Virus record (IMG/VR): IMGVR_UViG_3300038345_000087
Coordinates: 1-64,000 of that record
Length of the DNA: 64,000 nucleotides
Direction: 5' to 3' (one strand)
Source: a virus
Lineage: Duplodnaviria; Caudoviricetes
Every line of letters begins with the position of its first letter. The stretch's first letter is position 1. The notes under the pieces are model-generated. The model saw only the letters and a list, made by a program, of their open reading frames with translations, ran no database searches and was not told where the DNA came from. The position numbers and the translations under genes are program-made. This document shows, in pieces, positions 18,979 to 61,071 of this stretch.

Positions 18979-19641
18979 ATGAAGAAGTTTCTCATTTTTT
19001 GTATGTCAGTCTTGCTTTTTGTAGGCATGGCTGCATGTTTCTCCTCGTGTAAGCATAACAAACAAGAACCTCCACCTGACATCGGCTATGTCTCGCTTGG
19101 TACCACACAGGGTTCTCTTGATGTGGATAACGTCATCAGTACCGATCGTGAATATATGTTCATCCACTATGGCGAAGATTACCGCTGGTATGAGACGTGC
19201 ATGGTTCTGACGAATTATCTTGATGCTGAAACACAGGATGGGTCTCTTACAGAAGTTACCAACGTGTTCCAGAGTTATGATAAGGTGCCGTCAGGAGGTG
19301 CAGACACTTACGTTATTCTTGCCTATCACCCTGCTTACGGAAATGCTTATCTTGAAGTAGAACATGGTTTCTGGATCGAGGATTTCACATTGAATGGTGA
19401 GGACATTAAAGTATCATTTACTGAAGCATTTGAAAAAGTGATGGCATCTAATTACGTCAAGCCTCACTCGCGCCATTGTGTCCTACGAAAACAGGTTGGG
19501 CCTATACCGGCTAATCCTCAGTACATCTTCGGTAATACTCATTCGCAACTTTATGTCGATGCTGTCACGGGTGCTGTATCGGACCAGAATCCCGCCTTCA
19601 ATGGATTCCCTTTCGCCCTCCCCCTTGGTGAGTGGCCCTGA
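18979..19641 (+). CDS. Lipoprotein with PepSY-like C-terminus
   Basis: Lipobox FSSC; LYVDAVTGAV. Confidence 0.65.
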   Translation: MKKFLIFCMSVLLFVGMAACFSSCKHNKQEPPPDIGYVSLGTTQGSLDVDNVISTDREYMFIHYGEDYRWYETCMVLTNYLDAETQDGSLTEVTNVFQSYDKVPSGGADTYVILAYHPAYGNAYLEVEHGFWIEDFTLNGEDIKVSFTEAFEKVMASNYVKPHSRHCVLRKQVGPIPANPQYIFGNTHSQLYVDAVTGAVSDQNPAFNGFPFALPLGEWP

Positions 19642-19698: not shown

Positions 19699-19727
19699 AA
19701 GGAACCCACTATTTCGGTGGGTTCCTT
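19699..19727. terminator. Terminator hairpin between convergent genes
   Basis: AAGGAACCCAC-tatttcg-GTGGGTTCCTT. Confidence 0.75.
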
Positions 19728-20752
19728 ATTCTTTTTGGTATTCGTCTTGTAGTCCATATTCTTCTAAATACCTTTGACACTTGAATCCTTTTCTTGGGGT
19801 GAAATCCGCGAAACTATGTGCCACGAAGTGCGCTTTTTTGTTCACCCATCCTGCCATGTCCTTTTGCCATTGAGGAATAATCTGCTTCGGATTGTTAGGG
19901 TCTCTGTAAGGCTGTGCGTAGGCATATACAGGACGGCCCTTGCCAGCATCCCTTACGGCTCGCATTTTAATCCACCAATGTTGTATGCGTTCATAGCTCT
20001 CTTTGAAGTCGCTTTTTCCTCCTATCATGGTATAAAGAAAATACTGTCCTGTGAAACCATATCGATTTATCATTTCCATCGCTCGTTCACATTCGATTAT
20101 CTGACCTTTGGTGTCACATCCGAAACGGATTCGGTTGTTGTCTAACCATTTCACTTTTGCCAGCAGCTTTGCAATCTCTTCAGTAACCAATCGTGCATCA
20201 AGTGCCTGGTTGAAATCTACTTTATAACCTCTCTGGATAATTTTCTCTAACTGTTCTATTGCATACGTTCCTGCTGCCAATATGTTATTATCCATCAGAA
20301 CTATTTTTCTGCGGCCTTCAATGGCTATTTCGTCAATATCCATATAAGGACGGATTGCACCTTCTTTTCGTGGTACCACACACCAAGGACATTTGTTTGG
20401 GCATCCCCGTGTGAGGAACCCGTAGGCTGTATCTTTAGGTACATTGGGATAGATAGAGTAGTCTGGTTGCAGCCTGTCTATTTCCTCTGGTAACTGTCTT
20501 TCCACATCGTAACCAGTTCCTCCTTTGATGATTACATCTGCATCATAAATACTTAAATCGTCTGGTGTGAAGTTGAACACTTTTGACATATACAAAATGT
20601 CATAGTGCTGCATGGGCGTAGCCCATTCAATTTGCCCCCCCCTGATTATGCCAGTATCGGGCAATTTTCGCCAATGCAAGATTGGGGTATATGGTTGCTC
20701 CCCATTTCTTTTTCTTGGCATGACCGTCAACATCAACTAAACCGATTTTCAT
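19726..20752 (-). CDS. Radical SAM protein, frameshifted at G8 tract (OFF; G7 restores frame)
   Basis: ATG at 20752 (TGATG overlap) gives MKIGLVDVDG..YPNLALAKIARYWHNQGG, then stop; the CPNKCPWC core follows in another frame after C8 at 20635-20642. Confidence 0.85.
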
Positions 20753-21246
20753 CATGGCTCATTCAGTACTACATATTTTCCTTCAATGCTACACTTCCTG
20801 AGTCGTGAATCACATTTTCTTCCCCATGCCACCAGACATGAGCCAAAGAACGGATGCCCGATTTCTCCTCCTGGACGCAAGAATTTCACTCGATGACGCA
20901 TGAAGAGCATACTGGCAGCGGTTGGAAAGATAACATCTTGAAAGAGAAGATTGTCCTGCCGATTCACCAATAAAGCAATACCTCGTCCATGCTTGGCCAT
21001 CTTCTCTACAAATTGTCGTAGTGGCGCACGACTGTAAGGCGGATTCATCCATACGACTGCCGTACTTGGCCAATCGTGTGCCAATCCGTCTTGCTCTTTG
21101 TTATAGCTGAGTGGAGCAATGGGGTAGGGTGGTTCCATCGGCGCACAAGGATCTAAGTCAAAAGGTCCTAATTCGTCGATTATCCATTTTGGCGTGTACC
21201 ATTCATCGCTTGATACGACCGCATTCTTCTGTTGCCTCGTGTCCAT
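20752..21246 (-). CDS. Phage-type DNA N6-adenine methyltransferase
   Basis: SDEWYTP, FDLDPCA, WMNPPYS. Confidence 0.85.
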   Translation of the reverse strand: MDTRQQKNAVVSSDEWYTPKWIIDELGPFDLDPCAPMEPPYPIAPLSYNKEQDGLAHDWPSTAVVWMNPPYSRAPLRQFVEKMAKHGRGIALLVNRQDNLLFQDVIFPTAASMLFMRHRVKFLRPGGEIGHPFFGSCLVAWGRKCDSRLRKCSIEGKYVVLNEP

Positions 21247-21357
21247 GTCTATAAGAGTAATCTTTTTCGTCCATCACCACGGCATTTATCCCTGGCATCG
21301 GTTCTCCGTCGCCAATGGGCATCGGTGTGAGTGGAATATAAACGGCTATTTTCTTTT

Positions 21358-21654
21358 TCATAATCCTTTTAGTTTTTTCATTTTCTCCATGAGCCTATCA
21401 GCTTGTATTTTTATAGATCTATGTATAATCTGACTGAATGGTTCAACATTGATTATGTTTTGTAACTCTGTCATCTGATCTTTGGTCATTATGATTTCTG
21501 GCCTTCGTTTTGGCAGACTGTTTCGTAGTAATGATTCACACTCTGCCATCGTTCTTGGCATGTCATTGATACTCGCTTTTGGAACATGAATGACAATAGG
21601 CTTATCGTCATCTTGATAAGTGAGCATTCCTGAAGGGAAACCTTTTTCGTCCAT
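21358..21654 (-). CDS. Hypothetical protein
   Basis: 98-aa ORF in operon. Confidence 0.5.
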   Translation of the reverse strand: MDEKGFPSGMLTYQDDDKPIVIHVPKASINDMPRTMAECESLLRNSLPKRRPEIIMTKDQMTELQNIINVEPFSQIIHRSIKIQADRLMEKMKKLKGL

Positions 21655-21656
21655 AT

Positions 21657-21909
21657 CTAAATATCATATTCTATAAAAACACATTGACTGACTTCTCCGG
21701 CCATAAGTGCAGATGCTATATTGCCATCCTCTTTGACTCTTGCGCGACGAAGTTCAGAACTTGGGTAGGCTGCATCGAATACTCCTCCAGAACAGCAAGC
21801 GATATACCCCGCTTCTGTTGCCTGTCTGACTAATAGCCACATTTGCCCCCCCCCTCGTTTCAAGGGCAAGGAATGGCCTCGTGGTGCGGAAATGTCGTAC
21901 TTTACTCAT
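21657..21909 (-). CDS. Stand-alone C5-MTase TRD-like mini-protein, frameshifted at G9 (OFF; G8 = ON)
   Basis: ATG 21909 MSKVRHF..ETRGG, tract 21846-21854, then QMWLLVRQATEAGYIAC..DAAYPSSELRRARV..SALMAGE..FIEYDI*. Confidence 0.7.
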
Positions 21910-21910
21910 T

Positions 21911-22513
21911 CTAATTGAACCATTTTACTACGGTGTCACCTTTCCATCCTTTTTCCCATACGAACCATGCGTAAGCTGTTGCACTTCCACTTATTTCATC
22001 AAACTTACCATTCATGGCACACAATAGCCGTGAACAACTGACCCATATTCGTTTCGGTGGCTGTGTGAGAAAGAGGTGTTTTCTACCTTTGCCTTCCAGA
22101 AATGTTAGTTTTAGGAACATGCACACCTTCTTCCCCGTAGGGATGATAGATAATGCTTTTTCCACGAACTCTTGAGCGTAGGCGTAAGGTGGATTGGTAA
22201 CGATATGCCCGTTCCATTCTTGGTTGTCGATGGAGAGGAAATCGGCCACTTCGCCAAAGCCACGATCGATAAGGTCGCGTGAGGTGACGAAATACCCCCC
22301 CCTCATAAGCACTTTGGAGATATGACCCTCTCCACATGCGGGTTCAAGGATAGGAGCATCAAAGTCCTCCAGCTTTATCAACCATTCTGCGGCTTTCGGC
22401 TCAGTGGCATAGTAGTCAGCCCATGCTCGATCATGGTCTGCATGGTTACTGGCTCCAAGAGTTTTGAAAACGCTTGCTTTACCACCTCTCCAGTCTTTCT
22501 TGCGGTCACTCAT
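21911..22513 (-). CDS. DNA adenine methyltransferase with in-frame G8 tract (ON)
   Basis: DYYATEP, ILEPACGEG, VTNPPY; C8 at 22295-22302 encodes RGG. Confidence 0.85.
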   Translation of the reverse strand: MSDRKKDWRGGKASVFKTLGASNHADHDRAWADYYATEPKAAEWLIKLEDFDAPILEPACGEGHISKVLMRGGYFVTSRDLIDRGFGEVADFLSIDNQEWNGHIVTNPPYAYAQEFVEKALSIIPTGKKVCMFLKLTFLEGKGRKHLFLTQPPKRIWVSCSRLLCAMNGKFDEISGSATAYAWFVWEKGWKGDTVVKWFN

Positions 22514-22869
22514 CGGTTATCTCCGTTTCCGTCTATGACTCCACGTTTTTTACGGTCGGCTAACTTCGCCAGATTGTCCTCGGTGATGCTTTCCAGCTTC
22601 CAACCCATGACATCACAGAGTCCAGCTAATTGCCAAAGGATGTCGCCGGCCTCCTTGCGTAATTCAGGGATATTGTCGGTATGTGCCTTTGCAGTCGGAT
22701 AGGTGAAGTCGTTGTTGTAGATGCTGCCATCTTCTTTGCGGATGCTCTTCGCTATCTTTCCTGCGAACTCTCCCACCTCTGCTACGAGGTTAAGCATCAT
22801 GTAGGAGAAGTTGTTACATGCTTCCATGCGCGTAGTCATGGCTTTTGCTTGATATTCGTTCAGTGTCAT
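22510..22869 (-). CDS. MazG-like nucleotide pyrophosphohydrolase
   Basis: MTLNEYQ, AEVGE, KEAGDILW, NLAKLADR motifs. Confidence 0.85.
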   Translation of the reverse strand: MTLNEYQAKAMTTRMEACNNFSYMMLNLVAEVGEFAGKIAKSIRKEDGSIYNNDFTYPTAKAHTDNIPELRKEAGDILWQLAGLCDVMGWKLESITEDNLAKLADRKKRGVIDGNGDNR

Positions 22870-22906
22870 AATGAATTTGTTTGTTATGAGGTTATGAAAA
22901 ATCACT

Positions 22907-23119
22907 TTATTTTCGGATATGGCTTTGTCTAAGTATTTCTTCAGTCTCGATTTTACAACCAGTTTCTTCGCTCATACTGTCGGCAAAGTAGGTAGCTGCT
23001 TTTAGCAACCTATTGTATAACTGTTCACGCTTCTTCGGGTTCATCAGGAATGCTAAATGTCCCCGCACCCCCTTAGCTCTTTTGCAGTGCGTAGTAGCGT
23101 TTTTCCTAAATTTCTTCAT
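22907..23119 (-). CDS. Hypothetical protein
   Basis: Short ORF in operon. Confidence 0.45.
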   Translation of the reverse strand: MKKFRKNATTHCKRAKGVRGHLAFLMNPKKREQLYNRLLKAATYFADSMSEETGCKIETEEILRQSHIRK

Positions 23120-23327
23120 GGGGTGCTTCTATCTTTTTAAGCATACCGGCATTCACGAGCTTTCTGATGAGGTTCTTTTCATTGAGTGCCATTCTGTAGA
23201 TGCACCCTTCTTTCATGTCAACTCGTCTTGGACTACCCAAATTGGTGATTTTTCCAGTCTGGATGTTAATCTCAAAAACGCATTGTCCTGGTCTGCGTCT
23301 GAGTCTTGCTACATGTTCTTGTTTCAT
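23106..23327 (-). CDS. Hypothetical protein
   Basis: Short ORF; CIYRMALNEKN. Confidence 0.55.
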   Translation of the reverse strand: MKQEHVARLRRRPGQCVFEINIQTGKITNLGSPRRVDMKEGCIYRMALNEKNLIRKLVNAGMLKKIEAPHEEI

Positions 23328-23365
23328 TGTTTAATGAATGTATGATTTAATGAATTGATGAATTT

Positions 23366-24467
23366 TCAATCTTCAAACTCTAACCAATACTGGAGAAATC
23401 GCTCTGCATACCATCGTTTATAGCTTTTGCCGCTTATCCACCAGTCGTATATATTCTCGGCTATTTCTTTTTCTTGCTCCTCGGTCAAGCCGTCAGACGA
23501 GGAGCTACCAGAAAACCCGCGTTTCCCTTTCCAATGTGTCGGGTCTGGGTGTAGGATGTACCCGTAATCGTCGATAGTCTTTTGGGGATAACGGTTTGAA
23601 GTTGGTTCCAATACCGTACCACAGGGTTCCCGTTGGTAGGAATTTTGAGAAATACCCCCCCCATGTCGTATAGCGATAATGGCTTTTATCCAGTTGCGCT
23701 TTACATGGGGCCATCGTTCATTCTCTATGCGCTTTTGGCGTGGGCTGCTCATCGGGCACCCTATGCAGCCTATACGATGAAAGCCCTGGTCGTAGAGTTC
23801 GCAGTGTGGAACTCTTACCACGTCATTCAGGAACTTCCACACATCACGCTCCGTCCAGTTGATTATTGGTGATATCAGCAGGCTCTCTTTGCCGCTGATG
23901 CAGCCAATGGTGGTTTCCTCGGTGGCATTGGTGATATTGATGCCATTTGCCTTGCGGTATTCATCCAGACCATCTAAGGTTCCGCTGTATTTTCGGCTGT
24001 CTATTTCCACCTCATTACGTTTCTTGCGTCGGCTGCTCTCCTGCCTTCTGATGCCGATGAGTGTCACCTTGCCGGCTCCTGCATGTTCTTTGTATTCCTC
24101 ACAGCACCAACGTACTTTCTTCGTTGGTAGTAGTTGCTTGCGCTCTGCCACATGATAGATGCTGTCATTGGGCTTTATCAGTTCTACTTCTGGATAGTGC
24201 TTCTTGACGAAGCGGATTACCTCTGGCGGATCTACTGAAGTAAGATTCATGTGTCCCTCGAAGCGTACACCGGCCAACTGTGCAATATGGTAAAGGGTCT
24301 GACTGTCTTTGCCTCCACTGAAAGCAAGAAAATACCCCCCCCCTATTATCGTAGGCCAGAGCCAGCTTCTCGGCTCTCTGCAAAAGACTGATGGAATACT
24401 CCATTTTCTTTTGCAGCCCCTCACTTGCTCTTGCATACGCTTCCTCTATGGTTATGTCTATGTTCAT
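23366..24467 (-). CDS. PAPS-reductase family protein, frameshifted at G9 (OFF; G8 = ON); second G8 tract is in frame
   Basis: ATG 24467 MNIDITIEEA..YDNRGG, C9 at 24335-24343, then YFLAFSGGKDS, RWCC, GIRRQES, RIGCIGC; C8 at 23655-23662. Confidence 0.85.
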
Positions 24468-24469
24468 TG

Positions 24470-25244
24470 TTACTCGAAGTTTAATCTGCCTTGCCTTCCT
24501 GCTTCTTTGATGCGTTCTACGGCAATGTTGTAGTATTGGGTATCTTTTTCTACACCGATGTATCTTCTTCCTTCCTCGATGGCGGCCACGCATGTCGTTC
24601 CGCTCCCCATCGCATTATCAAGAATTAGCCCCCCCCTGCTCGCTATACGTGCGAATGAGGTGGCGAAGTAGATTTACCGGCTTTTGACTTGGATGCAGCC
24701 ATCCTCCCTTGTGGTGTTCCTTGGGGTAGGATAGGATGCTGCCAGGGTACTTCATTCGGCTCGCCACAGTCTCTGTCTTATTGAAAGTTCCGTAGCAGCT
24801 ATTCTTCACCTCTTTTTTTAGTCGGCCACGTGAATGGCTTGGTTCTCCAACTTTCATCTGAGGGTGATAGATGGGTAGCTGTTTATAGAACACGCAGATG
24901 TCCTCATGCTGTCTCAATGGCATCCGTTTCGCATTCAGAAAACCAGAACAGCGGGCCTTATCCCAAATGAGATTGTACTTCCACATTTTTGGATTACTCA
25001 TCATCAGGTGTGCTGTAAACATTCCTTGTGCGAAAAGAAGAATGGCTCCTCGTGGTTTAATGATTCGCCTATACTGTTCCCATAATGGTTCAAGTGGTAT
25101 CACACAATCCCATTGTGCGGACTTGTTGCTTTTATTGAGTACGCCGTATGGCAAATCGCAGATGATAGCGTCGATGCTTTCGTCTGCAATGTCTGTCATT
25201 ACGTCTAAACAGTCACCAAGGTAGATGTTATTTGGCTCTATCAT
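24470..25244 (-). CDS. Beta-class N4/N6 DNA methyltransferase, frameshifted at G8 (OFF; G7 = ON)
   Basis: GDCL, DLPYG, HPSQKP; the SAM-binding LILDNAMGSGTT and YIGVEKD lie past C8 at 24629-24636 in another frame, ending 24470. Confidence 0.88.
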
Positions 25245-28198: not shown

Positions 28199-29824
28199 TT
28201 ATTTGATGATAGTTTTCTGTAGATATTCCTCGTGGTACATCTGCCAGATATCACGGTAGTGGTTGATGTCATCCATGAGTTTGCCACGCATTTGCTTGGT
28301 GACATTCTTCTGCTCATTGATGGCGGCATGAAGATTGTCAGCATTGAGCATCTGGCGAAGGCAGTGACTAATGATGGTGCGTGTTCCCCAACCTCCGAAG
28401 CTGATGTTGTTTTCAGGACAGATAATAGTGTCACCACAGTATGAATACCAGATGTTATCTTCTATTGTATAGAAGTTGACAGCATCTTCGCTAATGACCA
28501 TAAGGACATCTGGAGCATCCTTATAGATGGCAACACAAAGTGCTACCCCCTTCCAAGATTCTAACTTCACGAACAGCATGTCATCTAATAGGTTTTGGTC
28601 ACGGAGCAAGTCTATTAGTTGCTCATTCTGTGAGTCGGCACATCCGCGCTCATCGAAATGGAGTTTTAACTGGTTCCCATCTTTTCCGCCGTATAGCCAT
28701 GTCAGATAGGCATGTAGAATCTTATCGTTCCAAGATGGCAACATCTGACGTACCTCTTCTGGGTTTGCTTTGTCGAATACCAACTTTGTCAAGTCGAACT
28801 CGATGCTGTTGGCCCAATCTTTAAGGTAAGGTTCTGGTGACAGGCGGACACAGTTGCTTTCAACACCAAGCAGCTCATGGGTCTGTGAACCAAATTCCTT
28901 TTGAAACTCATTGAAAACTTTATCGGTAATCTTGGCAAAGACGGGGCCTAATAAGTCAAATCGAACCTCAAATATGTCAATTCGTTCTGCCAGTGTTGGT
29001 TCTTTCACCTCTTCTGGTGCCTGAGTGCTTTCGTTTTCTGCTTCCTTTTTTAGGAAGGTGTCAAGCATTTCTCTACGACGTTTCAGATCGTCCTCGGCCA
29101 TCATCAGACGGATTCTGTCTGATGTCTGCCTGTCGGGTTTTTGACCAGGTTTTAGTTCATTGAGCCGGCTCTGGTAGAACTGCTCCAGTGTGATGGCCTT
29201 TACTTGATACTGCTTGGCCAAAGCAGAAAAGTTCTTCAGAGAATTGTTCTTCTGAAAATACTCCACCACGGCACAAAGGTACTCGTGGAATTTTTTGAGT
29301 CTTTGTTCGTTCATATATAAATTGGTTTGGGGTACTGTATCTTCTTTATACCTCTCAGCAGATTGTTTTTTCTGCAATGCCTTCTTTCGTTCAGCCTCTT
29401 GCTTTTTCTTCTCCGCTTCCTCTTGCAAGGCTTTTTGACGTTCGGCTTCACGCTGTTTCTGTTCCGCGAACCTGGCCTCTCGCTCTGCTTGTGCCTTTTC
29501 TTGTTTAAGACGCTCTTGCTCATTGATTTTTTCCTGAGCCTGGCGCAGCTGCTCTTTCCATTGTGAATCCCGTTCTTCGGCTGCTTTTGCCTTTGCTTCG
29601 GCTTTATCAGCCAACTCGCTCCATCCGAATGGGGCACCTTCCAGATGGTTTTCTTTTACCGTCCTTCTGGCTACACAAGGATTGATGCCAGTGCTTGATA
29701 CGGGAATCGTTCTGCCATCAGGGTGTTTCCACACCTGATGCTTATTGGTGCGGTCGAGAACAAAACCGTTACGTTTCAACAGCCGTTCCCAATCCTTTTT
29801 GCTGATATTGTGCAATCCTGCCAT
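28199..29824 (-). CDS. HicA-like N-terminal domain fused to coiled coil and unknown domain
   Basis: WERLLKRNGFVLDRTNKHQVWKHPDGRTIPV matches the HicA dsRBD-like pattern. Confidence 0.65.
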   Translation of the reverse strand: MAGLHNISKKDWERLLKRNGFVLDRTNKHQVWKHPDGRTIPVSSTGINPCVARRTVKENHLEGAPFGWSELADKAEAKAKAAEERDSQWKEQLRQAQEKINEQERLKQEKAQAEREARFAEQKQREAERQKALQEEAEKKKQEAERKKALQKKQSAERYKEDTVPQTNLYMNEQRLKKFHEYLCAVVEYFQKNNSLKNFSALAKQYQVKAITLEQFYQSRLNELKPGQKPDRQTSDRIRLMMAEDDLKRRREMLDTFLKKEAENESTQAPEEVKEPTLAERIDIFEVRFDLLGPVFAKITDKVFNEFQKEFGSQTHELLGVESNCVRLSPEPYLKDWANSIEFDLTKLVFDKANPEEVRQMLPSWNDKILHAYLTWLYGGKDGNQLKLHFDERGCADSQNEQLIDLLRDQNLLDDMLFVKLESWKGVALCVAIYKDAPDVLMVISEDAVNFYTIEDNIWYSYCGDTIICPENNISFGGWGTRTIISHCLRQMLNADNLHAAINEQKNVTKQMRGKLMDDINHYRDIWQMYHEEYLQKTIIK

Positions 29825-29825
29825 A

Positions 29826-30293
29826 TTACTCTTGTGATTTTTCAAGATCCTTTATTCGTGCTTGAATTTCAAATCTGATGTCTGTGAACTCAGCTTGGCT
29901 AAATTCAAAATGATAGATTCGGTTCCCGCTGATAATGCCCATGCGAAGCAGACATCTTAATGCTGTCGCCACATGCTCATCGTAAGGTTCTACAATCTGC
30001 TCAACAGTGTAACCTGTCTCTTTCTGGATGATGAAGTCAATGGCTTTGCAACTCACTAATGTTTCATCGCGGTTCTCGTAGTGGTTATGGTAATCTTCAG
30101 CATACCATAACGCCTTTTGCAGATCTTCACGCTCTTTATCACGGTTGCTACGTCCCATTTCGGTTTTCAGACCAGCTCTCCAGAGATATTTGATGGCACA
30201 GCCAGTGTCAAAGGTGTAGTGCCTAATGATTTCGATGCACTCTATTCCTCCTGGGTGCTTGTTGTAATGGACGGGGTGGTTTACATGCTCCAT
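29826..30293 (-). CDS. DUF3310-like phage protein
   Basis: VNHPVHY..IECIEII..AIKYLWRAGLK..DLQKALWY. Confidence 0.8.
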   Translation of the reverse strand: MEHVNHPVHYNKHPGGIECIEIIRHYTFDTGCAIKYLWRAGLKTEMGRSNRDKEREDLQKALWYAEDYHNHYENRDETLVSCKAIDFIIQKETGYTVEQIVEPYDEHVATALRCLLRMGIISGNRIYHFEFSQAEFTDIRFEIQARIKDLEKSQE

Positions 30294-60208: not shown

Positions 60209-61071
60209 TGACTGTTATTAAGACTACAACACCCATCGCACGCAATGATTACACTTGTGATCTGTGCCATCAACAAATTCCGCATGGCACACGATATAAG
60301 TGTGTTATTCTGCGTGCAGATGGCCGTCTCGTAACTCAGCACGTTCATCAGACATGTCCTGCCACGGTGTCAGAAGCATCATCTTCTGGTGTCGTTTCTA
60401 ATAATCCGCGTCAAACAGCTCCTCTGTTTATCCAGGGGGGGCATACTCCAGAAGATATTTTTCGCCAACAAATACACGCAGACGTTCAGGCACGCCTCCA
60501 TAAGTTTACCCGTGAGGAGAACTTACTGATAGCGTATGCGCCACTGGTTATTACTGAACTCTCTTGGAGGTTCGCTTTTAAGACTGTTGAATTGGCAGCT
60601 CACTATCGTATCTCTGAATTGAAAAAACTGTCACGTACCGTCAAGATGATGTTCGAGAAACAGAGGGGGCAATATCTTAAAGACCTCAAACCGTCACATA
60701 TCAAGCAAATAGAGACACAGACGGACAGATTCATGCAACTGTCATCCTCAGATCTTACCATCCTATATTTCTCTATCAATAACGAACTTAAAAAGAAGTT
60801 TCCAGATCTCTCTTACCTCGATCTGAGAACGGAGGCATGTCGAGCGATGGTGATGCTGAAGTTTCATAAAGAACATCAGAGAAAAATGGATGCGCTCATT
60901 AAGGAGCGTATGGGATATGTCAATCACTATGCAACACCCATACATGATGCTCTTTATGATGCAATGGATGCCTACGCCGATCCTGCTACTGTTGATTTCT
61001 CTGGCCATGTGGCCACATCTATGAAAATCTTACAGAAAAATATAGGTCAAATGGACTTTAAGACGTTCTGA
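60208..61071 (+). CDS. Hypothetical protein with N-terminal Zn ribbon and in-frame G7 tract
   Basis: ARNDYTCDLC..HQTC; G7 at 60435-60441. Confidence 0.65.
   Translation: MTVIKTTTPIARNDYTCDLCHQQIPHGTRYKCVILRADGRLVTQHVHQTCPATVSEASSSGVVSNNPRQTAPLFIQGGHTPEDIFRQQIHADVQARLHKFTREENLLIAYAPLVITELSWRFAFKTVELAAHYRISELKKLSRTVKMMFEKQRGQYLKDLKPSHIKQIETQTDRFMQLSSSDLTILYFSINNELKKKFPDLSYLDLRTEACRAMVMLKFHKEHQRKMDALIKERMGYVNHYATPIHDALYDAMDAYADPATVDFSGHVATSMKILQKNIGQMDFKTF

Follow-up and report, generated by a model that had tools for sequence, protein, structure and literature searches.

In a few bacterial pathogens, switching by homopolymer contingency loci is textbook knowledge, and the locus described here raises the question of whether a phage could use the same device to switch a whole set of DNA-modification enzymes. 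The stretch of DNA analysed (the window) consists of the first 64 kb of the 106,650-bp phage record IMGVR_UViG_3300038345_000087, which is rated as complete by CheckV. The cluster in question occupies positions 19,726 to 25,244 of the window and encodes, among others, three DNA methyltransferases (MTase A, MTase F and a Dam-type MTase), a protein with the fold of phosphoadenosine phosphosulfate (PAPS) reductases, a radical S-adenosylmethionine (SAM) enzyme and an 83-aa protein. Six runs of eight or nine C on the plus strand, i.e. of G on the coding minus strand, lie within these genes (Table 1), two of them in the PAPS-like gene. We conclude that these tracts are probably slipped-strand contingency loci which independently switch orphan MTases, the PAPS-reductase-fold iron-sulfur (Fe-S) enzyme and the radical SAM enzyme.

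A previous inspection of this DNA without any database search (the sequence-only reading) had reported six coding-strand tracts of G8-G9, had assigned an ON or an OFF frame to each of them and had proposed that the shifts separate the halves of single proteins. All six tracts were found at the positions it had given, and the ON and OFF frames were borne out in every case. The halves do belong together: skipping one G joins them at four tracts, and the resulting products span the junction in full-length family models. The read-through of the radical SAM gene aligns with residues 2-331 to positions 1-304 of the 305 positions of the phrog_9298 profile, the read-through of MTase A with residues 24-243 to the entire PF01555 profile (1-221 of 221), and the read-through of the PAPS-like gene scores 77 bits against PF01507 (cut-off 22.5). 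In the window, four of the six tracts are one G longer than the length that keeps the frame; in MTase A, the OFF frame encounters a stop six codons past the tract and ahead of the FxGxG motif (MGSGTT). The six G8-G9 runs thus sit within five open reading frames (ORFs), as is characteristic of simple sequence repeat (SSR) contingency loci.

The occurrence of these tracts is not random. The lengths of C runs are bimodal, with 17 runs of five, none of six, one of seven, four of eight and two of nine, and the 8-mer CCCCCCCC has 13 matches on both strands compared to 1.17 ± 1.48 in 100 dinucleotide-preserving shuffles (maximum 6; none of the 100 reached 13). Over the 106.65-kb genome, 13 of the 16 G/C runs of at least seven fall within two modification clusters that together account for 8.3% of the sequence (binomial P ~4e-12), the second one being a similar cluster at 40.1-42.8 kb with about seven tracts. 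In all 13 cluster tracts the G is on the coding strand, and GGG is the rarest glycine codon in long ORFs, where it makes up 8%. The only G/C runs of at least seven outside both clusters are located at 1053-1059 and 60435-60441 of the window and at 68646-68652 of the genome. The flanks A-Gn-(C/T)A are common to nearly all of these 16 runs.

We then compared the tracts between closely related phages; all of these comparisons rest on assembled contigs, not on raw reads. An independent Logan assembly of the source sample (run X1) reproduced the tract lengths of the window without gaps. Three other runs, which stem from different studies (X2, X4 and X15), yielded contigs that are ~99% identical to the window, and every indel that distinguishes them from the window is at one of the six tracts, with differences ranging from -3 to +4 G (Table 1); the gap counts in the listed contig pieces agree with these differences. 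The deletion of X15 at the tract at 21846 is carried by only 7.7 of 12.2 depth, one contig breaks within the tract at 23655-23662, and X15 also has an interrupting substitution at 20639 in the radical SAM tract. In addition, 14 further contigs with 97-99% identity were fetched by exact-protein look-up, and their alleles were called by flank-by-flank alignment to the query and exact-flank matching. Contigs L095-L101 and L102-L108 were each chosen via the ON (or named) allele of one gene, which biases the ON fractions calculated for the two genes concerned. The radical SAM tract is interrupted in some of these contigs, reading GGGAGGG in L099, L100, L105 and L107 and GGGAGAG in L103 and L108. 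The GGGAGGG allele is synonymous, as it keeps the sequence Gln-Gly-Gly-Gln, but removes the slippery run and locks the radical SAM gene in the ON state in these four contigs and in X15; such an allele is expected if constant expression is favoured in some lineages.

Ten complete operons with 97-98.7% identity were aligned. This alignment contains nine indel sites, of which six are the tracts and three are in-frame indels of 3 or 9 nt, and frame-changing indels occur at the tracts only. The ten genomes display nine distinct ON/OFF combinations, and a run of seven T in MTase A (24813-24819) is invariant across the ten operons. The second hallmark of SSR contingency loci, a length that differs between near-identical genomes, was thus found here with a range of G6-G12, and each tract gene is represented by ON as well as OFF alleles, the changes in length toggling an intact reading frame. 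ON alleles of every tract gene were found in other public assemblies. The full-length genes called elsewhere comprise the 342-aa radical SAM gene (99% identity), the 257-aa MTase, the 366-aa PAPS-like gene and the 83-aa gene. The 257-aa ON form of MTase A is called in L095, L096, L098 and L102-L106, the intact 83-aa gene in L096, L097, L104 and L107, and the exact 200-aa MTase F protein is encoded on at least 23 public contigs. Throughout the ten genomes, the tract genes are free of in-frame stops, and the ratios of nonsynonymous to synonymous substitution rates (dN/dS) calculated for the ON frames of the ten operons were 0.19 for MTase A, 0.10 for the PAPS-like gene, 0.05 for MTase F, 0.17 for the 83-aa gene and 0.08 for the radical SAM gene. 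Since dN/dS is 0.05-0.19, the tract genes are, as judged from their substitution patterns, not pseudogenes and under purifying selection.

The tracts are also present in more distant phages. A megablast search with the 5.5-kb region against GenBank phages gave no match, and relatives were found via a protein-level search. In a sister lineage with identical flanks, the tract of MTase A occurs as G7, G8, G9 and G10. A tract of at least six G at the site homologous to PAPS tract 2 is carried by 56 related and window-lineage contigs, and most PAPS-like genes have 6-10 G at the homologous codon after NWIKAI(K/R)AIR, in both cases down to ~58% identity. The closest named relatives of the radical SAM protein, with 54% identity, belong to temperate Bacteroides/Phocaeicola phages, the LoVEphage group. 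In four GenBank genomes of this group, a Dam-type gene carries tracts of G9, G7, G6 and G9 where the in-frame length is G8, so that all four alleles are OFF, and this gene is annotated as two coding sequences in three of the four records. The PAPS-reductase gene of the same four genomes has G8, G8, G10 and G10 near its 5' end, and two of these genomes are those of induced cultured lysogens. In Phocaeicola phage PV4-TP1, a third tract of G8 lies in a hypothetical gene (L082:10585). The proposal of real frame-switching tracts, which homologs of invariable tract length would have contradicted, is in line with these data, as the lengths vary both between near-identical genomes and between homologs.

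These comparisons also bear on the possibility that the genes are in fact intact and that the frameshifts arose as errors in sequencing or assembling homopolymers. Such errors are conceivable in a metagenome assembly of a run from 2015 whose platform is not on record, and all four OFF states are indeed one G too long. However, two assemblers gave the same lengths from the source run, and in over 14 other assemblies, which come from different studies and have depths of 7-33x, the lengths range from G6 to G12 and include differences of 2-4 nt, whereas A/T runs of seven are without indel. The GenBank genomes of induced cultured phages vary likewise, and errors would leave the existence of the tracts, their conservation and their restriction to modification genes unexplained. 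For these reasons, we regard an artefact as extremely unlikely.

Two of the tracts are followed by stretches that are open in all three reading frames. After PAPS tract 2, both alternative frames are open in the window, for 49 and 55 codons, and in nearly all relatives they are open through the whole linker encoded there, which is of variable length. In the first 48 codons after this tract, the alternative frames of 21 lineages contain 11 stops compared to 88 expected from codon shuffles, and those of a stricter set of nine lineages contain 2 compared to 32.3 (0 of 300 shuffles were as low). After the MTase F tract, four lineages have 2 such stops compared to 11.6, again with 0 of 300 shuffles as low. 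The stop-poor stretches, at 23485-23654 and 21911-22294 of the window, comprise about 50-70 codons. No depletion of stops was found after the tract of MTase A, PAPS tract 1, the radical SAM tract or the residue-65 PAPS tract of some relatives, and in MTase A and the radical SAM gene the alternative frames run into a stop after only 3-10 codons. The PAPS linker of several relatives ends with a second G tract. Judged from these stop counts, the shifted frames at the two sites seem to be translated, or each of them seems to have been the coding frame recently, and the pattern suggests isoform switching, not plain ON/OFF switching, at PAPS tract 2 and the MTase F tract. Being polymorphic (G7-G12) and followed by a three-frame-open linker, PAPS tract 2 probably has a role beyond that of a passive in-frame run. 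We also considered avoidance of polarity as the cause of the stop-free frames and rejected it, since MTase A and PAPS tract 1 also have downstream genes and yet are unprotected.

Open alternative frames of about 50-70 codons after these two tracts would likewise fit a scenario in which OFF alleles are still expressed via RNA polymerase slippage or ribosomal frameshifting, the tract setting a protein ratio or producing two isoforms instead of acting as a heritable switch. Long homopolymers are sites of RNA polymerase slippage, best documented for A/T runs, and the presence of the G on the coding strand throughout would be compatible with such a role. A programmed site should hold a fixed length, however, while the tracts range from G6 to G12 between identical flanks, with +1 as well as -1 states, and the alternative frames are unprotected at the tract of MTase A, PAPS tract 1 and the radical SAM tract. 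No stimulatory structure was noticed either, although no search was aimed at one. Slippage during expression is, moreover, compatible with switching at the DNA level and need not replace it; as a substitute for a heritable switch, we consider it very unlikely.

The persistence of tracts at the same codons across ~58-100% identity, despite GGG accounting for only 8% of the glycine codons, is difficult to reconcile with real mutational hot spots that have no adaptive role and whose accidental OFF states are tolerated in dispensable accessory genes. One synonymous change is sufficient to kill a tract, as exemplified by GGGAGGG, and neutral tracts should therefore decay. The restriction of the tracts to DNA-modification genes with the G always on the coding strand, the strong purifying selection on these genes and the purging of stops from the alternative frames downstream of two tracts also speak against mere hot spots. 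This explanation draws on the abundance of OFF alleles, which make up about half of the tract states in the near-identical contigs, all four Dam alleles of the LoVEphage group and the first four radical SAM alleles that were encountered in tract-bearing lineages. The related genomes are not independent and ON:OFF ratios are no test of selection. Altogether, we judge tracts without an adaptive role to be unlikely.

We propose that slipped-strand mispairing in runs of 7-10 G:C during replication of the phage DNA would add or remove a G, and that each change in length would put the respective gene in or out of frame, independent of the other genes. In four of the five genes, the tract is upstream of the catalytic motif, which is FxGxG in MTase A, SGGKDS in the PAPS-like protein, NPPY in MTase F and CxxxCxxC in the radical SAM enzyme; because these four tracts precede the catalytic motif, the OFF alleles would lack the active site. 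One lineage would keep yielding genomes with differing active sets of two orphan MTases, the PAPS-like protein, the radical SAM enzyme and the 83-aa protein, and the second cluster at 40.1-42.8 kb would add further combinations. The rate of switching within one population would presumably be high and the switching reversible. Such a diversity could serve as bet-hedging, as a mark that protects against the restriction system of one host may be useless or costly elsewhere or may expose the phage to modification-dependent (Type IV) nucleases. The anti-restriction benefit is one that we infer by analogy with the agt gene of phage T2, and regulation of host genes by a prophage form would also be possible.

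A number of points weigh against contingency switching. Variation within a population is hinted at, weakly, only by the mixed depth of X15 and the contig break in 23655-23662. The window is one G above the commonest length at the tracts of MTase A and the radical SAM gene, and all four OFF states are +1. A homopolymer bias of the source library from 2015 could have affected the exact lengths in this record. G8 alleles occur in other assemblies, for MTase A in L107, for the radical SAM gene in L096 and L097 and for MTase F in at least 23 contigs, and the comparative result is unaffected by a possible bias of the source run. At the level of the phenotype, the switch is a prediction based on sequence.

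Family searches bore out the gene list of the sequence-only reading, identifying a beta-class MTase, a PAPS_reduct protein, MazG, an NPPY MTase (phrog_799), a tract-free Dam-type MTase and a radical SAM enzyme. MTase A matches PF01555 with 110.7 bits (cut-off 26.7) and phrog_67 with 248 bits, and has a motif IV-like DLPYG (residues 31-35) before the tract and the FxGxG motif MGSGTT (residues ~212-217) after it, an order that places it in the beta class. Based on these motifs, MTase A is predicted to be an N6/N4 MTase of this class with m6A or m4C as target base. MTase F displays the motifs EPACGEGH and TNPPY and matches phrog_799 over residues 3-200 (200.8 bits), and gave no match in Pfam. The Dam-type MTase matches PF05869 with 50.3 bits (cut-off 28.1) and phrog_111 with 135 bits; its score of 49.2 against TIGR01712 is under the equivalog cut-off of 97. 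No Res, HsdR, HsdS or nuclease domain was detected in the cluster or the ten genes upstream, and PADLOC labels the MTases of the cluster as Type II or orphan. Because no nuclease partner was found among the scanned genes, the MTases look like orphans, which would fit an anti-restriction role. We also considered a phasevarion, i.e. a Type I/III MTase with its partner subunits; without a Res, HsdR, HsdS or nuclease domain, the cluster does not qualify as one.

The label of a target recognition domain (TRD) unit that the sequence-only reading had given to the 83-aa protein was not supported. No family of Pfam, PHROGs or NCBIfam matched the protein, a query of the protein Atlas with its 62-aa downstream part yielded nothing usable, and no similarity was detected between the protein and the mini-ORFs that surround the C5-MTase (39.7-43 kb); in a whole-genome tblastn search, the best hit outside its own locus had E = 0.49. 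The gene starts 1 nt past the stop of MTase F (TAG A ATG) and is syntenic with MTase F in locus L022. Instead of being a stray cassette that belongs to the distant C5-MTase, the 83-aa gene may act as a partner to MTase F.

The PAPS-like protein belongs to the PAPS_reduct family, as indicated by its PF01507 score and its SGGKDS PP-loop. In alignment A1, residues S50-S55, C121, C122, C234 and C237 are invariant, and this CC...CxxC set resembles the [4Fe-4S] site of adenosine phosphosulfate (APS) reductase. An AlphaFold2 (AF2) model of the protein (predicted local distance difference test (pLDDT) 70, predicted template modelling score (pTM) 0.68) was matched by Foldseek with probability 1.00 to the PAPS domain of FAD synthase, to CysD and to APS reductase 2goy (TMt 0.64), and contains a low-confidence, disordered linker (residues 271-325) that separates the catalytic domain from a conserved helical module at the C-terminus. 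The designation of this protein as DndC-like was not supported: in PADLOC, no DndC model matched at E <= 0.01, the matches being BrxP (4e-12, partial) and SspD (1e-3), and the genes of the cluster include no Dnd-type partner. All scores for the CysH/APS-reductase families of NCBIfam are also far below the equivalog cut-offs (42.5 for TIGR00434, cut-off 165; 33.9 for TIGR02055, cut-off 235), and the protein falls outside these families. The phage protein thus shares with DndC, SspD, BrxP and APS reductase the PP-loop fold, the SGGKDS motif and the CC...CxxC cysteines, but differs from them by a C-terminal helical module of its own behind a frame-flexible linker.

The radical SAM protein matches phrog_9298 with 330 bits, while the score for PF04055 (22.6 bits) is under the cut-off of 29.5. 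Residues C118, C122 and C125 in the motif CPNKCPWC are invariant in alignment A2. The AF2 model (pLDDT 85, pTM 0.83) consists of a radical SAM barrel that is preceded by a Rossmann-like domain at the N-terminus, and Foldseek retrieved MtaB, MiaB, MgmA and TsrM with E of 4e-8 to 3e-5 and TMq of 0.51-0.57; a sequence search against the PDB gave nothing below E = 0.48. Taking motif, modelled fold and phrog_9298 together, the protein is predicted to be a member of the radical SAM superfamily. Its arrangement of a Rossmann-like N-terminal domain and a radical SAM barrel is that of MiaB and MtaB, of which MiaB acts on a nucleic-acid base, and of the cobalamin-dependent methylases TsrM, MgmA and TokK. 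Unlike in MiaB, the N-terminal domain of the phage protein is without conserved cysteines and would thus not hold a MiaB-type auxiliary cluster, and unlike in the cobalamin-dependent methylases, no cobalamin-binding motif was identified. The sequence similarity to either group is negligible.

Among 80 related loci (L001-L080), 21 contain genes for both the PAPS-like and the radical SAM protein, and in all 21 these genes are immediate neighbours that share a strand, with gaps of 15-574 nt and in either order. In the window, they are separated by 2.6 kb of other modification genes, which we read as inserted. This conserved adjacency points to a two-enzyme module, and the gene neighbourhood is what suggests that the pair modifies DNA, or does so by non-methyl chemistry. 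It is conceivable, but rather doubtful, that the pair makes an undescribed non-methyl mark, e.g. a sulfur-containing or C-alkyl one, on the phage DNA or its precursors, that this mark is switched by poly-G slippage and that the PAPS linker yields three C-terminal isoforms. A 7-deazaguanine pathway with QueC/QueE-like enzymes was rejected as a candidate, as a scan of 30 proteins in and around the cluster detected no FolE, QueD or DpdA/TGT, and as PAPS_reduct is the family matched by the PP-loop protein.

A close precedent is a poly-A tract in the agt gene of phage T2, for which the modified state evades McrA/BC and the unmodified state evades TgvAB (Gomez, Barrick and Waters 2025, bioRxiv 10.1101/2025.10.21.683753). 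The tract comprises bases 288-296, variants occur at a frequency of 7e-4, and reversion is ~1000-fold over that of a point mutant; homopolymer contingency loci in T-even and other phages are reported in the same preprint (10.1101/2025.10.21.683753). Both T2 and the phage described here have a homopolymer that switches, or here is predicted to switch, phage DNA modification, and the benefit proposed here is the same trade-off. T2, however, is a lytic coliphage with a poly-A tract in a single gene and a measured rate, whereas here the tracts are poly-G, affect several genes and are family-wide. In Campylobacter (Fletchervirus) phages, poly-G runs of 7-11 in receptor-binding proteins give rise to mixed progeny, according to the summary in that preprint (Sorensen et al. 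2021, cited in 10.1101/2025.10.21.683753). These runs, too, lie inside phage genes and vary in length, but they concern receptor-binding proteins of phages whose host genus itself uses poly-G phase variation, while here DNA-modification enzymes of a Bacteroidota-type gut/rumen phage carry six tracts plus about seven in the second cluster. A poly-G run in the methylase of Bordetella phage BPP-1 was noted in 2004 (Liu et al. 2004, cited in 10.1101/2025.10.21.683753); as cited there, it is likewise in a phage DNA methylase gene, but it concerns a single gene mentioned in passing and is not treated as a switch. Bacterial phasevarions (e.g. PMC5700931, PMC6321876), the classical case among methyltransferases, are based on SSRs in Type III mod genes and in Type I/II genes, as in Haemophilus, Neisseria, Helicobacter and Campylobacter. 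There, repeats in methyltransferase genes give stochastic ON/OFF methylation, as proposed here, but the genes are chromosomal restriction-modification genes that re-program host expression, in contrast to the orphan MTases of a phage.

In the open-access literature and preprints, we found no description of poly-G switches in modification genes of Bacteroidota phages, and neither the paper describing the LoVEphages nor PMC12629997 mentions frameshifts, homopolymers or poly-G tracts. Of the inducible prophage species of the latter study, from 2025, the LoVEphage group was the one most commonly detected in human gut viromes (~8%; PMC12629997). Phage examples of homopolymer contingency loci are few in the literature searched. 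What differs here is a whole set of DNA-modification enzymes with individual putative poly-G switches, adding up to about 13 tracts that a single genome holds in two clusters, and conserved over a large family of cattle- and human-gut phages that includes the LoVEphage group. If these are switches indeed, a single phage stock would be a mixture of epigenetic types, which would affect measurements of host range, and there would be consequences for the annotation of 'split' methyltransferase genes in metagenomes and for methylation-based linking of phages and hosts. Such switching would also bear on how phages balance classical against modification-dependent restriction. Furthermore, the locus draws attention to the linked pair of PAPS-fold and radical SAM enzymes and to linkers with a flexible reading frame, an unusual feature for any genome.

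Table 1 Genes, G tracts and other features of the modification cluster. Positions refer to the window unless a locus is named. For the tracts, the difference in G from the window is given for contigs X15, X2 and X4, followed by the alleles of the near-identical contigs with the number of contigs in brackets.
Feature	Position	Strand	Description	X15	X2	X4	Alleles in near-identical contigs
MTase A	24470-25244	-	beta-class N6/N4 (predicted), PF01555, 257 aa read through; OFF				
MTase A tract	24629-24636	-	G8 = OFF, G7 = ON	-1	-1	-1	G7 (11/13), G8 (2/13)
PAPS-reductase-fold PP-loop enzyme	23366-24467	-	PF01507, phrog_424, 366 aa read through; OFF				
PAPS-like tract 1	24335-24343	-	G9 = OFF, G8 = ON; just upstream of PP-loop	-1	-2	-3	G7 (3), G8 (7), G9 (3), G10 (1)
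PAPS-like tract 2	23655-23662	-	G8 = in frame; start of linker	none listed	none listed	+4	G7 (6), G8 (4), G9 (1), G10 (1), G11 (1)
orf73	23106-23327	-	no family match; 73-aa gene in L095-L108; dN/dS 0.17				
orf70	22907-23119	-	no family match; 70-aa gene called in relatives				
MazG-type nucleotide pyrophosphohydrolase	22510-22905	-	PF03819 37.6 bits (cut-off 22); phrog_229 99.8 bits; without tract				
MTase F	21911-22513	-	small DNA methyltransferase, 200 aa, phrog_799, NPPY; ON				
MTase F tract	22295-22302	-	G8 = ON; between motif I and NPPY	-2	-1	-1	G7 (4), G8 (8), G9 (1); set partly picked for G8
83-aa gene	21657-21909	-	function unassigned by family search; OFF				
83-aa gene tract	21846-21854	-	G9 = OFF, G8 = ON	-2	-1	+1	G7 (5), G8 (4), G9 (4), G10 (1)
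orf98	21358-21654	-	no family match; 98/99-aa gene called in relatives				
orf98 and a 52-aa ORF	21203-21654 (together)	-	no family assignment				
Dam-type phage N6-adenine methyltransferase	20752-21246	-	164 aa, PF05869, phrog_111; without tract in this phage				
Radical SAM enzyme	19726-20755	-	phrog_9298, 342 aa read through; OFF				
Radical SAM tract	20635-20642	-	G8 = OFF, G7 = ON; codon 38-40	-1	-1	-1	G7 (6), G8 (3), GGGAGGG (4), GGGAGAG (2)
Bidirectional terminator-like hairpin	19699-19727	both	stem of 11-12 pairs, T run on each strand; consensus scan				
Dam tracts of the LoVEphage group	L082:6328 (PQ571302), L092:7028 (PQ571265), L093:7028 (MW660583), L094:7028 (OY731433)						

The public runs in which the phage is found (20 runs of 16 studies) are mainly gut metagenomes of cattle and other animals. 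The genes around the cluster serve phage replication and accessory functions and include those for a ParA-like ATPase, an NAD-dependent ligase, a primase/helicase-like protein with DUF5906 and a beta clamp. Every gene between 19.7 kb and at least 29.8 kb is on the minus strand, and the genes are tightly packed or overlap. The strong terminator-like hairpin at the end of the cluster closes both this leftward gene block and a convergent gene at 18979-19641, and a promoter scan of the block yielded 13 sites compared to 12.3 expected. The MazG gene has a dN/dS of 0.09. Upstream of the cluster, a 548-aa ORF on the minus strand (28199-29845) has a weak HicA-toxin-like match in its N-terminal part (25 bits, cut-off 27). 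Between the stop of the PAPS-like gene and the start of orf73 (23330-23365), the contigs of all four runs break and have several continuations; this site resembles a junction of modules at which related phages that occur together diverge from each other.

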